Shown: positions 560 through 49,028 of the stretch, piece by piece | How the letters are laid out: the number at the start of each line of letters is the position of its first letter | Position numbering within the stretch: the stretch's first letter is position 1 | Assembly: GCF_050320075.1 (NCBI RefSeq) | Contig: NZ_CP190018.1 | Direction: 5' to 3' (one strand) | DNA length: 64,000 bases | Source of the DNA: Escherichia coli | GTDB taxonomy: Bacteria; Pseudomonadota; Gammaproteobacteria; Enterobacterales; Enterobacteriaceae | Program-made: the position numbers and the translations under genes | The notes under the pieces: generated by a model | What the model was told of the DNA's origin: nothing | Seen by the model: only the letters and a program-made list of their open reading frames with translations | Databases searched by the model: none

Positions 560-1369
560 ATGAGTAATACCGACGCTTCAGGCGAGAAGCGAGTGACAGG
601 CACCAGTGAGCGACGAGAGCAGATCATTCAACGCCTGCGCCAGCAAGGAAGTGTGCAGGTTAACGATCTGTCGGCATTGTATGGCGTATCTACTGTGACG
701 ATCCGCAACGATCTGGCGTTTCTGGAAAAGCAGGGGATCGCTGTGCGTGCCTATGGCGGCGCGTTGATCTGCGATAGCACGACGCCGTCAGTCGAGCCAT
801 CAGTGGAAGATAAAAGCGCGCTGAACACCGCAATGAAACGCAGCGTTGCGAAAGCTGCCGTTGAGTTGATTCAGCCAGGTCATCGGGTGATCCTCGATTC
901 CGGGACCACCACTTTTGAGATTGCTCGTCTGATGCGCAAGCACACTGACGTAATTGCGATGACCAACGGTATGAACGTGGCTAATGCGTTGCTGGAAGCG
1001 GAAGGCGTTGAGCTGCTGATGACCGGCGGGCATTTGCGCCGTCAGTCGCAATCTTTTTACGGCGATCAGGCTGAACAATCGCTGCAAAATTACCACTTCG
1101 ATATGCTGTTTCTTGGCGTAGATGCGATCGATCTGGAGCGCGGCGTCAGCACGCATAATGAAGATGAAGCCCGTTTAAACCGTCGGATGTGCGAAGTTGC
1201 GGAACGGATCATCGTGGTCACCGATTCCAGTAAGTTTAACCGTTCCAGTTTACATAAGATCATTGATACTCAACGTATCGACATGATCATTGTTGATGAA
1301 GGCATTCCTGCGGATAGTCTGGAAGGCCTGCGAAAGGCTGGGGTTGAAGTGATTCTGGTCGGGGAGTGA
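560..1369 (+). CDS. agaR: DeoR-family transcriptional repressor of the aga (N-acetylgalactosamine) regulon
   Basis: 269-aa ORF with ATG at 560 and AAAGGA RBS; N-terminal HTH plus DeoR C-terminal sugar-binding region; position next to kbaZ. Confidence 0.9.
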
Positions 1370-1517
1370 GAAAGGGTGCCCGCTGGTCAACACGAATGCG
1401 TTCGGCGGGCATTGTGAACACCATCAATGGGCTTCTTCTGTCTCTCGGGTGAGGGTTTCCCAGTCGGCAGGAGGATGTCCTCTTTTTAACATTTTGCTGA
1501 ATACGGTATAGGCATCT

Positions 1518-1525
1518 GTTTTTTT
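1518..1525. repeat. IS1 target-site duplication, left copy (GTTTTTTT)
   Basis: 8-bp direct repeat immediately outside the IS1 terminal inverted repeat; identical to 2294-2301. Confidence 0.85.
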
Positions 1526-1540
1526 GGTAATGACTCCAAC

Positions 1541-2044
1541 TTATTGATAGTGTTTTATGTTCAGATAATGCCCGATGACTTTGTCATGCAGCTCCACCGA
1601 TTTTGAGAACGACAGCGACTTCCGTCCCAGCCGTGCCAGGTGCTGCCTCAGATTCAGGTTATGCCGCTCAATTCGCTGCGTATATCGCTTGCTGATTACG
1701 TGCAGCTTTCCCTTCAGGCGGGATTCATACAGCGGCCAGCCATCCGTCATCCATATCACCACGTCAAAGGGTGACAGCAGGCTCATAAGACGCCCCAGCG
1801 TCGCCATAGTGCGTTCACCGAATACGTGCGCAACAACCGTCTTCCGGAGCCTGTCATACGCGTAAAACAGCCAGCGCTGGCGCGATTTAGCCCCGACGTA
1901 TCCCCACTGTTCGTCCATTTCCGCGCAGACGATGACGTCACTGCCCGGCTGTATGCGCGAGGTTACCGACTGCGGCCTGAGTTTTTTAAATGGCGGAAAA
2001 TCGTGTTGAGGCCAACGCCCATAATGCGGGCAGTTGCCCGGCAT
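1541..2044 (-). CDS. insB: IS1 InsB reading frame (expressed as InsAB' transposase by -1 frameshift)
   Basis: 167-aa [53 protein letters not shown]... recognised as IS1 InsB. Confidence 0.95.
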
Positions 2045-2238
2045 CCAACGCCATTCATGGCCATATCAATGATTTTCTGGTGCGTACCGGGTTGAGAAGC
2101 GGTGTAAGTGAACTGCAGTTGCCATGTTTTACGGCAGTGAGAGCAGAGATAGCGCTGATGTCCGGCGGTGCTTTTGCCGTTACGCACCACCCCGTCAGTA
2201 GCTGAACAGGAGGGACAGCTGATAGAAACAGAAGCCAC
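1963..2238 (-). CDS. insA: IS1 InsA transcriptional repressor / transposase N-terminal part
   Basis: 91-aa [45 protein letters not shown]... recognised as IS1 InsA. Confidence 0.95.
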
Positions 2239-2293
2239 TGGAGCACCTCAAAAACACCATCATACACTAAATCAGTAAGTTGGCAGCATCACC

Positions 2294-2301
2294 GTTTTTT
2301 T
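2294..2301. repeat. IS1 target-site duplication, right copy (GTTTTTTT)
   Basis: Identical 8-mer to 1518-1525, directly abutting the other IS1 end. Confidence 0.85.
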
Positions 2302-2663
2302 ACCGTAGGTGCGCAGCGTGTTTTCATCGTTCATCCATCCCAGAATGATGACTTTCTCTTTTTCGCTGTAACGAAAGAAGAGACGATAACGACCAGCACC
2401 AAATTTTACCCGTGACCAGTCTTTATTTTTCCCAGAGCCTAACGACTTGCCATGACGGAATGCCGGTGATGATGGATTGACCGTGATATGCTCCTCAATC
2501 ACTTTATGGACTACCGCCAATAACTTTGTGGCGGCTTTTCTCTGATAATTTTCAGGATCTTTTCCCTTTAATGTCTCGACTTCGGCAACTAAAGCGTCGT
2601 AGGTTTCCTGAAAACAGGGATGAGCATATAGCGCCCAACCATTAACCCTTTGTGGAAAATCCA

Positions 2664-2999
2664 TTATTCGTCGTCGCCAATCTCATCATCAATGTTGACG
2701 TCCATGCCAGCGACAAGTTTCTTTCCTTGTTGAGTGTCGAATGGACGAGTTTTTTGCGGGTTGTTCTGGATATCTGCATCCAGAAAACGCAAAAATGCAT
2801 TCATAGTATGATCCTCCTGTTCATCTCCCAGTCGGCACATAAATACTTGCCCACCAGGCAGAATTTCGTAATGAATGCTGTCCTGGCCTGGCTTCAGTTT
2901 TAAGGCCTCACGCACTGGCGCGGGGATAGTTGTTTGTCCGCGTATCGTGACCTTTGATTCAGTGGTCAGTACAGCGTGAGAGCGAGCATTAGCGGGCAT
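2664..2999 (-). CDS. prlF: Antitoxin PrlF (SohA) of the PrlF-YhaV toxin-antitoxin pair
   Basis: 111-aa ORF MPANARSHAVLTTESKVTIRGQTTIPAPVREALKLKPGQD... with acidic C-terminus; stop overlaps yhaV start by 1 nt (TAATG). Confidence 0.9.
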   Translation of the reverse strand: MPANARSHAVLTTESKVTIRGQTTIPAPVREALKLKPGQDSIHYEILPGGQVFMCRLGDEQEDHTMNAFLRFLDADIQNNPQKTRPFDTQQGKKLVAGMDVNIDDEIGDDE

Positions 3000-3098
3000 G
3001 ATTCACTGTCCTTTTACAGCCTGTTTTCTGCTCAAATTATAAGCTTGAACTAAGGTAATGCAAATGCATTATTAATGTACGTGGGGGCTTTAAACAAT

Positions 3099-3147: not shown

Positions 3148-4719
3148 TCAGGTCACCGGTGCCGGGTTAAACACCGCCAGCTGGTTATGCAGTCCCCATT
3201 GATCTGAGAAGGTTTTCTTCTTCCCGCTGGCGACGTCGAGAATAAAGTGGAACAACTTCCAGCCCACCTCTTCAATAGTTTCTTCGCCGGTAGCGATGGT
3301 GCCCGCATTAATATCCATTAAATCAAACCAGCGGTTCGCCAGCTCGGTGCGGGTCGCCATTTTAATGACGGGTACCGCCATCAGGCCGTACGGCGTACCG
3401 CGACCGGTCGTAAACACTTGCACGGTGATACCCGAAGCCACCTGTTGCGTGCCACAGACAAAATCGCTGGCTGGCGTCGCGGCGTAAATTAATCCGCGTT
3501 TAGTCGGGCGTTGACCAGGCGACAGCACTTCAACAATTGCACTTTTACCCGATTTAGCAATGGAGCCGAGCGCTTTCTCCACCACGTTTGCCAGACCGCC
3601 TTTCTTGTTGCCCGGCGAAGGGTTGGCGCTGCGGTCGGTTTTTCCCATATTGAGATAGTTATCGTACCACTCCATCTCCTCCAGCAGCCGTTTACCGACC
3701 TCTTCGTTCACTGCGCGTGGTGTCAGCAGATGGATCGCGTCACGCACTTCCGTGACTTCTGAAAACATCACCGTTGCGCCGCAGCGCACCAGTAGATCAG
3801 ACGCATACCCAACCGCCGGGTTTGCCGTTACGCCAGAAAACGCATCGCTACCGCCGCACTGCATGCCGACAACCAGTTCTGAAGCCGGACAGGTTTCTCG
3901 CTGCCGTTGATTCAGTTTGTGCAAATGGCGTTCGGCGACCTGCAAAATATCCTCGACCATGGACTGAAAACCGACATGCTTTTCATCCTGCAAACTGACA
4001 ATGCTGGCGCTTTCTACTGGAATAGCTTGCACATCATCCGTTCCAGTCAGCAGGCGTTCAGGCTGCAACTTTTCACAACCCAGACCAATCACCATTACTT
4101 CGCCGCCAAAGTTAGGGTTCAGCGAAATATTGTGAATGGTACGAATAGGCACAACTGCCGCCGGTGCGTTAATCGCCACGCCACAACCGTACAAATGATT
4201 CAGCCCCACCACGCCATCGACGTTCGGGTATTTCGGTAGCAGATCGCGTTCAATGATTTTTACTACATAGTCCACCACGCCTGCCACACAGTGGACGCTG
4301 GTGGTGATGCCGAGCAGGTTTTTAGTGCCCACGCTGCCATCGGCATTGCGATAGCCCTCAAAGGTGTATCCTTCCAGTGGCGGTAAGGGTGCCGGGACTT
4401 TGGTTGCCAGTGGCAGCGTGTGTAACGGCGGCGCTTCCGGTAGTACAACCATTGATTCGTCGATCCAGCTTCCGCGTGGGATTGCGCGCACGGCGTAACC
4501 AATCACTTCGCCATAACGAATAATTTCACCATTAGCCGGAATGTCCAGCAATGCGACTTTATGCCCCTGGGGAATATGTTCAATTAATTCCAGCCCATCC
4601 GGAAAACGCGTTCCTGCTTTCAGGCCATTATCATTAACAATAATTGCCACATTATCTGTGTCGTGAACTTTTATATAAAACGCAGTTGGCGTTTCTTGTC
4701 TGATTTCGATGTTGGCCAT
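3148..4719 (-). CDS. garD: Galactarate dehydratase
   Basis: 523-aa [42 protein letters not shown]...; divergent from garPLRK. Confidence 0.92.
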
Positions 4720-45018: not shown

Positions 45019-45033
45019 GATTGGCAGCTACCT

Positions 45034-45121
45034 GCCAGATAAGGCGTAAACGCCTTATCTGGCATACGTTCAGCACATTACCCCCAGGTCGGATAAGACG
45101 CGGCAAGCGTCGCATCCGGCA
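45034..45121. repeat. REP pair (BIME) filling the rlmG-fadH convergent spacer
   Basis: GCCAGATAAGGCGTAAACGCCTTATCTGGC (perfect palindrome) and GGTCGGATAAGACGCGGCAAGCGTCGCATCCGGCA. Confidence 0.8.
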
Positions 45122-45135
45122 CTTCAATGCACGAT

Positions 45136-47458: not shown

Positions 47459-49028
<1,570 letters not shown>

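Follow-up and report, generated by a model that had tools for sequence, protein, structure and literature searches.

In E. coli K-12, the toxin YhaV cleaves mRNA in a ribosome-dependent manner and causes a growth arrest that is neutralized by PrlF (PMC7781912, PMC11980606). The two proteins also form PrlF2-YhaV4 complexes that bind to a palindrome in the prlF promoter (review PMC7781912). Loss of the toxin has been observed under laboratory selection, where alleles that abolish yhaV function, insertions of IS1, IS2 and IS5 among them, spread repeatedly in nitrogen- and magnesium-limited chemostats (Warsi et al. 2018, PMC5960147). A yhaV knockout on its own, however, carried a fitness cost of ~8% (PMC5960147). 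Insertions of IS1 are known to generate duplications of either 8 or 9 bp, with AT-rich sequences as the preferred targets (Lee et al. 2016, PMC5009759).

Our analysis of a 64-kb stretch of E. coli DNA (hereafter the window, meaning the whole stretch analysed) has shown that a complete IS1 interrupts yhaV after codon 124 and leaves prlF intact. Based on domain, conservation and structure predictions, we estimate a probability of roughly 85% that the YhaV toxin is inactivated, i.e. that this is a null allele. The features of the locus are as follows.

560 to 1369, plus strand: agaR, a 269-amino acid ORF convergent with yhaV, intact and outside the event (PGAP annotation of an identical genome).
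1424 to 1525, minus strand: 3′ fragment of yhaV, codons 122-154 plus stop, with the translation KKTDAYTVFSKMLKRGHPPADWETLTRETEEAH followed by the stop; a PGAP pseudogene 'missing N-terminus'.
1517 to 1525, minus strand: part of the 3′ fragment corresponding to codons 122-124, which contains the left repeat copy.
1518 to 1525, no strand: left copy of the target-site duplication, GTTTTTTT (repeat comparison).
1526 to 2293, minus strand: complete IS1 (IS1B type), 768 bp, with 23-bp imperfect inverted repeats at 1526-1548 and 2271-2293 (NF033558; PGAP).
1541 to 2044, minus strand: insB′ frame, joined to insA through a -1 frameshift at the A6C motif (TTAAAAAACTC, 1979-1989) (ORF list, NCBIfam).
1963 to 2238, minus strand: insA, 91 amino acids (ORF list, NCBIfam).
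2272 to 2664, minus strand: truncated yhaV, 130 amino acids, its 124 native codons at 2293-2664 (ORF list; a PGAP pseudogene 'missing C-terminus'; product P0151).
2294 to 2301, no strand: right copy of the target-site duplication, GTTTTTTT (repeat comparison).
2664 to 2999, minus strand: prlF antitoxin gene, intact, 111 amino acids (NF007429; same protein accession as in strain WR3-3).
3036 to 3071, minus strand: prlF promoter-like site, with a -35 hexamer TTTGCA at 3064-3059 and a -10 hexamer TATAAT at 3041-3036 (from the sequence).
3148 to 4719, minus strand: garD, at the same end of the window.

The element is a canonical IS1, and the possibility that it represents an unusual variant was rejected. 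Its length of ~768 bp, ~23-bp imperfect terminal repeats, insA/insB′ arrangement with an A6C -1 frameshift, duplication in the 8-9 bp range and AT-rich target are all those of IS1. The terminal inverted repeats (GGTAATGACTCC... and GGTGATGCTGCC...) match at 18 of 23 positions, and the ends of the element read GGTAATGACTCCAACTTATTGAT and GGTGATGCTGCCAACTTACTGAT. Both ORFs, the 91-residue InsA and the 167-residue InsB frame, lie on the minus strand, so that the transposase has the same orientation as yhaV. When compared to the NCBIfam IS1 family transposase model NF033558, the InsB part scored 143.7 bits (cutoff 100) and InsA alone scored 90 bits. Since there are transposase matches for both ORFs as well as the frameshift motif and the inverted repeats, this IS1 looks intact. 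It is the only copy of IS1 in the window. The direct repeat found on both of its sides cannot be extended, as the corresponding 9-mers are unequal (TGTTTTTTT versus GTTTTTTTA), and the duplication is therefore exactly 8 bp. An insertion pattern of this kind is not due to chance. The first-pass annotation had described a complete IS1 with an 8-bp duplication at codons K-K-T, and its coordinates and repeats proved correct throughout; its remark that 8 bp is atypical of IS1 was overstated, given the documented range of 8 or 9 bp (PMC5009759). The target is an A7 tract (yhaV nucleotides 364-370), the longest homopolymer run of the gene, and the junction between yhaV and the element reads AAAAAAAC followed by GGTGATGCTGCC.

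On the upstream side of IS1, the yhaV ORF encodes 124 native residues plus the six-residue tail VMLPTY; both the tail and its TGA stop come from the left end of IS1, which also supplies the last base of codon 124, a synonymous change. Codons 125-154 and the native stop lie beyond the element at 1424-1516. The split after codon 124, the position of the last 30 codons and the 130-residue product with its VMLPTY tail had been read from the sequence beforehand, and all of these points hold. Removing IS1 and one repeat copy in silico restored an uninterrupted yhaV ORF of 154 amino acids. The restored protein differs from K-12 YhaV only by T153A and is identical to the YhaV of WR3-3, the closest intact relative.

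The empty site was then sought in other genomes. A 763-bp reconstruction of it is contiguous in 5,117 of 5,426 complete E. coli genomes (at ≥80% coverage), and WR3-3 matches it in a single piece with one mismatch, located inside agaR. The target sequence CATCTGTTTTTTTACCGTAGG is identical in WR3-3. The flanks of IS1 are thus contiguous yhaV sequence, and the refuting condition named in the first-pass annotation, flanks that do not join into one yhaV gene, does not hold. The insertion itself was present in only two complete genomes, those of YZLc1-3 (chicken faeces, China) and Ec-U3 (human urine, Burkina Faso), which show 0 differences from the window and from each other in the 50 kb compared. 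In addition, the exact 130-residue product (P0151) was found on 67 public contigs (103 index blocks), and the contigs that were read share one genomic context. For this reason, the available sequences indicate that the yhaV::IS1 allele marks one very recent clone. The allele is not new, since RefSeq/PGAP already labels both parts of yhaV as pseudogenes, separated by an "IS1-like element IS1B family transposase" with a programmed frameshift.

A survey of IS1 copy number had also been suggested, and it can be answered approximately. With IS1 plus the adjoining yhaV, agaR and prlF sequence as the query, 22 matching places were counted on one carrier chromosome and 26 on the other, nearly all of which are copies of IS1; the median across genomes was 11. 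Two carriers identical over 50 kb thus differ in this count (22 versus 26), which suggests that IS1 is still active in a clone that has spread recently. Separately, a single Logan contig encodes a 130-residue protein (P0152) with the tail VMTPTY rather than VMLPTY, which reflects either a read error or an IS1 variant with a different left end, inserted at the same site.

With respect to the toxin, the segment that has been lost belongs to the family domain rather than to a variable tail, because the match of Pfam Toxin_YhaV (PF11663) to the restored 154 residues extends to residue 150 (residues 12-150, E = 8.9e-54, model positions 1-137 of 138). The native part of the 130-residue product ends at 124, and the product therefore lacks residues 125-150 of this match. 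NCBIfam contained no model matching YhaV, either full-length or truncated. In an alignment of 72 homologs that are 34-56% identical to the query, P64, R94, F96, W110, N112 and R118 are invariant. D125, Y127, F130, P140 and L146, all within the lost segment, are conserved in ≥90% of the homologs, and five of the 19 best-conserved family positions fall in residues 125-154.

An AlphaFold model of YhaV built on the same alignment (pLDDT 96.4, pTM 0.91) predicts strands at residues 5-7, 10-14, 84-88, 93-100 and 105-111 and helices at 16-35, 44-60, 126-135 and 143-153. According to this model, the truncation deletes both C-terminal helices (126-135 and 143-153), which are predicted with a pLDDT of about 95-97. 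The top Foldseek matches of the model in the PDB are PfiT, HigB2, E. coli RelE, YoeB and ParE, which places the predicted structure in the RelE/ParE (BECR) fold. No solved structure of YhaV was found by sequence or profile search of the PDB. In this group of toxins, Y87 of RelE and H83/Y84 of YoeB are placed similarly to the C-terminal residues of HigB. For HigB, the C-terminal residues Asp90, Tyr91 and His92 have been shown to be critical for cleavage (PMC7781912). Aligning YhaV with RelE by hhalign gave a weak 19-column alignment (YhaV 90-109 with RelE 57-75, probability 0.89%) that pairs R94 with R61. We make no claim that Y127 corresponds to RelE Y87, as the hhalign alignment reached only YhaV 90-109. 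Taken together, the span of the Pfam domain, the conservation of the lost residues and the predicted helices support the earlier suggestion that the toxin is probably inactivated.

The antitoxin gene, which had been described as intact with its own promoter, is indeed so, and its operator is unchanged as well. PrlF is full-length and matches the NCBIfam PrlF equivalog NF007429 over residues 1-111 (168.6 bits, cutoff 125). The prlF stop overlaps the yhaV start by one nucleotide at 2664 (TAATG). A putative operator palindrome (TAATGCA-AA-TGCATTA, 3056-3071) shares bases with the -35 hexamer and has the same sequence in K-12, and the single base by which the prlF-garD intergenic region differs from K-12 (3078) lies outside the palindrome. 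Two residues of PrlF differ from K-12, N88D and I89T (codons 88-89). Since both are also present in the yhaV-intact WR3-3, they represent a lineage allele rather than a response to the loss of the toxin, and a compensatory change in prlF was accordingly rejected. Repression of the operon may weaken if the truncated YhaV cannot join the PrlF-YhaV complex.

Based upon these observations, we predict the following course of events. IS1 would have transposed into the A7 tract of yhaV (GGT AAA AAA ACA, codons 121-124) with a normal 8-bp duplication. The prlF-yhaV operon would still be transcribed from its own promoter and PrlF would be made normally, while translation of yhaV would enter the left end of IS1 and stop after six codons. 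Because residues 125-154, with their two helices and near-invariant residues, are missing, the resulting protein of 130 residues would most likely be misfolded or catalytically dead, and the cell would retain PrlF as a solo antitoxin and repressor. The PrlF2-YhaV4 repressor complex probably cannot form under these circumstances, and autoregulation of prlF may therefore be altered. The allele appears to have been inherited in one recent clone, where it is most likely neutral or mildly beneficial.

Several other explanations of the locus were weighed against this one. Assemblies are often confused by copies of insertion sequences, and the arrangement could in principle be an artefact of this kind; however, identical junctions occur in two independent complete assemblies and in dozens of independent NCBI, ENA and Logan contigs, and the target-site duplication is clean. 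We consider the chance of an artefact negligible and rejected it on the strength of the many independent assemblies. A more serious alternative is that the truncated protein, YhaV(1-124) plus VMLPTY, is partly functional, being weakly toxic or acting as a PrlF-binding co-repressor, so that the module would be attenuated rather than dead. The truncated product retains the whole beta-sheet together with the invariant R94, F96, W110, N112 and R118, and the 5′ part of yhaV shows no additional changes when compared with the intact relative. The latter observation is uninformative, however, because the clone is so recent (0 differences in 50 kb), and the two helices and five positions conserved at ≥90% are gone from a domain that runs to residue 150; in characterised relatives such as HigB, moreover, residues near the C-terminus serve in catalysis. 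Partial function thus seems unlikely to us. It is more improbable still that the main consequence is regulatory, whether through read-through from the prlF promoter that alters expression of insA and the transposase, or through transcription that exits IS1 and affects agaR. IS1 is indeed oriented as the operon, the stop of the truncated yhaV lies only 33 nt ahead of the insA start, and the carriers have more matches to the IS1 query than the median genome. Nevertheless, the hairpin that separates agaR from yhaV has not changed, and E. coli genomes frequently contain many IS1 copies, which calls for no particular explanation. Inactivation of YhaV therefore stays our preferred reading.

Disruptions of yhaV by IS elements are rare in nature. 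Of 5,426 complete genomes, 5,152 carry the gene; its structure is intact in 5,121 of these, and only the other 31 have a split or truncated form. Elsewhere in the gene, P0019 has an IS1 after codon 62, P0005 carries a frameshift, and in P0003 codon 94 is followed by a tail that we take to be IS2-like. Deletions bounded by IS1 run from within yhaV into the aga/yra clusters in F829 (L003), MB50 (L004), 2017-02-1CC and JP538 (L017), and a similar IS1-bounded deletion in PSJ-07 (L002) starts at the 3′ end of agaR. The ends within yhaV are at nucleotide 88, at about nucleotide 291 and at nucleotide 326, and the far ends are in agaB, yraJ and yraI. These deletions remove agaR and much of the N-acetylgalactosamine/galactosamine cluster, and IS1 is oriented in every case as it is in the window.

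The A7 tract itself has been hit more than once. Many near-identical truncated forms of YhaV are present in a representative protein library. Among them, P0009 runs ...YGKKT and then continues into a translation of the other end of IS1. The junction in its DNA (L008, 3180-3335) reads AAAAAAACA followed by GGTAATGACTCC, meaning that IS1 is reversed and displaced by 1 bp from the junction in the window; the opposite orientation and the shift identify it as an independent event. In P0153 (123 amino acids), an IS66-family element is joined to yhaV at GGTAAAAA followed by GTAAGCGG, which gives G-K-K-stop (L009/L010, 2860-2900). The element has IS66-type transposase domains in its genes, and the allele was found in three complete genomes as well as in many drafts. 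From these junction sequences, we infer at least three independent insertions within 5 bp in the A7 tract. A simulation with uniform placement gave p ~0.015 for three of eight events falling within 5 bp; this clustering statistic is only suggestive, because two of the three alleles came via a length-biased protein cluster. Both a target preference for A runs and selection for the loss of YhaV are possible. We also noted a public 153-residue variant of YhaV, P0164, in which one frameshift in the A7 tract is compensated by another in the A5 run that follows (...YGKNRCLYRIQQNVKRGHPP...). These may reflect either homopolymer sequencing error or real slippage, and the tract is thus also indel-prone in assemblies.

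Whether the insertion was positively selected, with loss of YhaV being beneficial in this lineage rather than merely drifting to fixation in the clone, is a related question that we answer with a doubtful perhaps. Losses of yhaV repeatedly reached high frequency in chemostats (PMC5960147), there are independent natural disruptions, three of them in the A7 tract, and the clone has been recovered on two continents and on 67 contigs. On the other hand, with only 31 of 5,152 genes disrupted, natural selection mostly keeps yhaV, and a single knockout alone was costly (~8%; PMC5960147). A preference of the elements for such targets would account for the hits in the A7 tract just as well, and hitchhiking can also yield clonal spread. 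The broader proposal, that the A7 run at codons 122-124 is a true hotspot for multiple elements at which natural lineages repeatedly lose YhaV under selection, is similarly tentative and in our opinion probably not correct. If it were true, natural populations would mirror the chemostats, and yhaV would be a recurrent target of adaptive loss and not an occasional neutral casualty. Inactivation of the toxin by a neutral or mildly beneficial insertion is the account that we retain.

Two further observations concern the remainder of the window. The gap between rlmG and fadH (45019-45135) consists of 117 bp of REP-like palindromic sequence, and higB/higA are not annotated there; this is the position at which K-12 has its higBA toxin-antitoxin pair. 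A tblastn search with a K-12 HigB sequence gave no match. Between fadH and ygjK (47459-49000) there is a gene for a 513-residue 'hypothetical protein'.

In general terms, this is a textbook case of a chromosomal type II toxin gene being knocked out by IS1, with a solo antitoxin left behind, and as such it is ordinary and already known; the only slightly novel part is that different insertion sequences have repeatedly used the A7 tract. On its own the locus matters little and changes no open question. It nonetheless shows, in a clean and recent case, how a toxin-antitoxin module of the chromosome is eroded by an insertion sequence, and it is a natural counterpart of the yhaV knockouts selected in chemostats. 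In addition, yhaV::IS1 is a convenient marker by which one clonal E. coli lineage can be recognized. The recurrence at the A7 tract could be used in studies of how insertion sequences choose their targets, or in asking about the phenotype of a solo PrlF.

When compared to insertional inactivation by IS1A/IS1B-type elements of E. coli, the present case is alike in length, terminal repeats, A6C frameshift and AT-rich target. Nothing about it is unusual, and its 8-bp instead of 9-bp duplication is inside the documented range. As in other chromosomal type II toxin-antitoxin modules that have decayed to a solo antitoxin, an interrupted toxin gene stands next to an intact antitoxin gene with its promoter and operator; here, however, the decay is very recent, and both toxin fragments still equal the intact allele. 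With the natural disruptions in L008 and L009/L010 it has the tract in common, whereas the elements, orientations, positions or host lineages differ. The knockouts of Warsi et al. 2018 (PMC5960147) affected the same gene, involved IS elements including IS1 and likewise left prlF in place, but they arose in K-12 chemostats, whereas the present allele belongs to a natural clone from chicken faeces and human urine.
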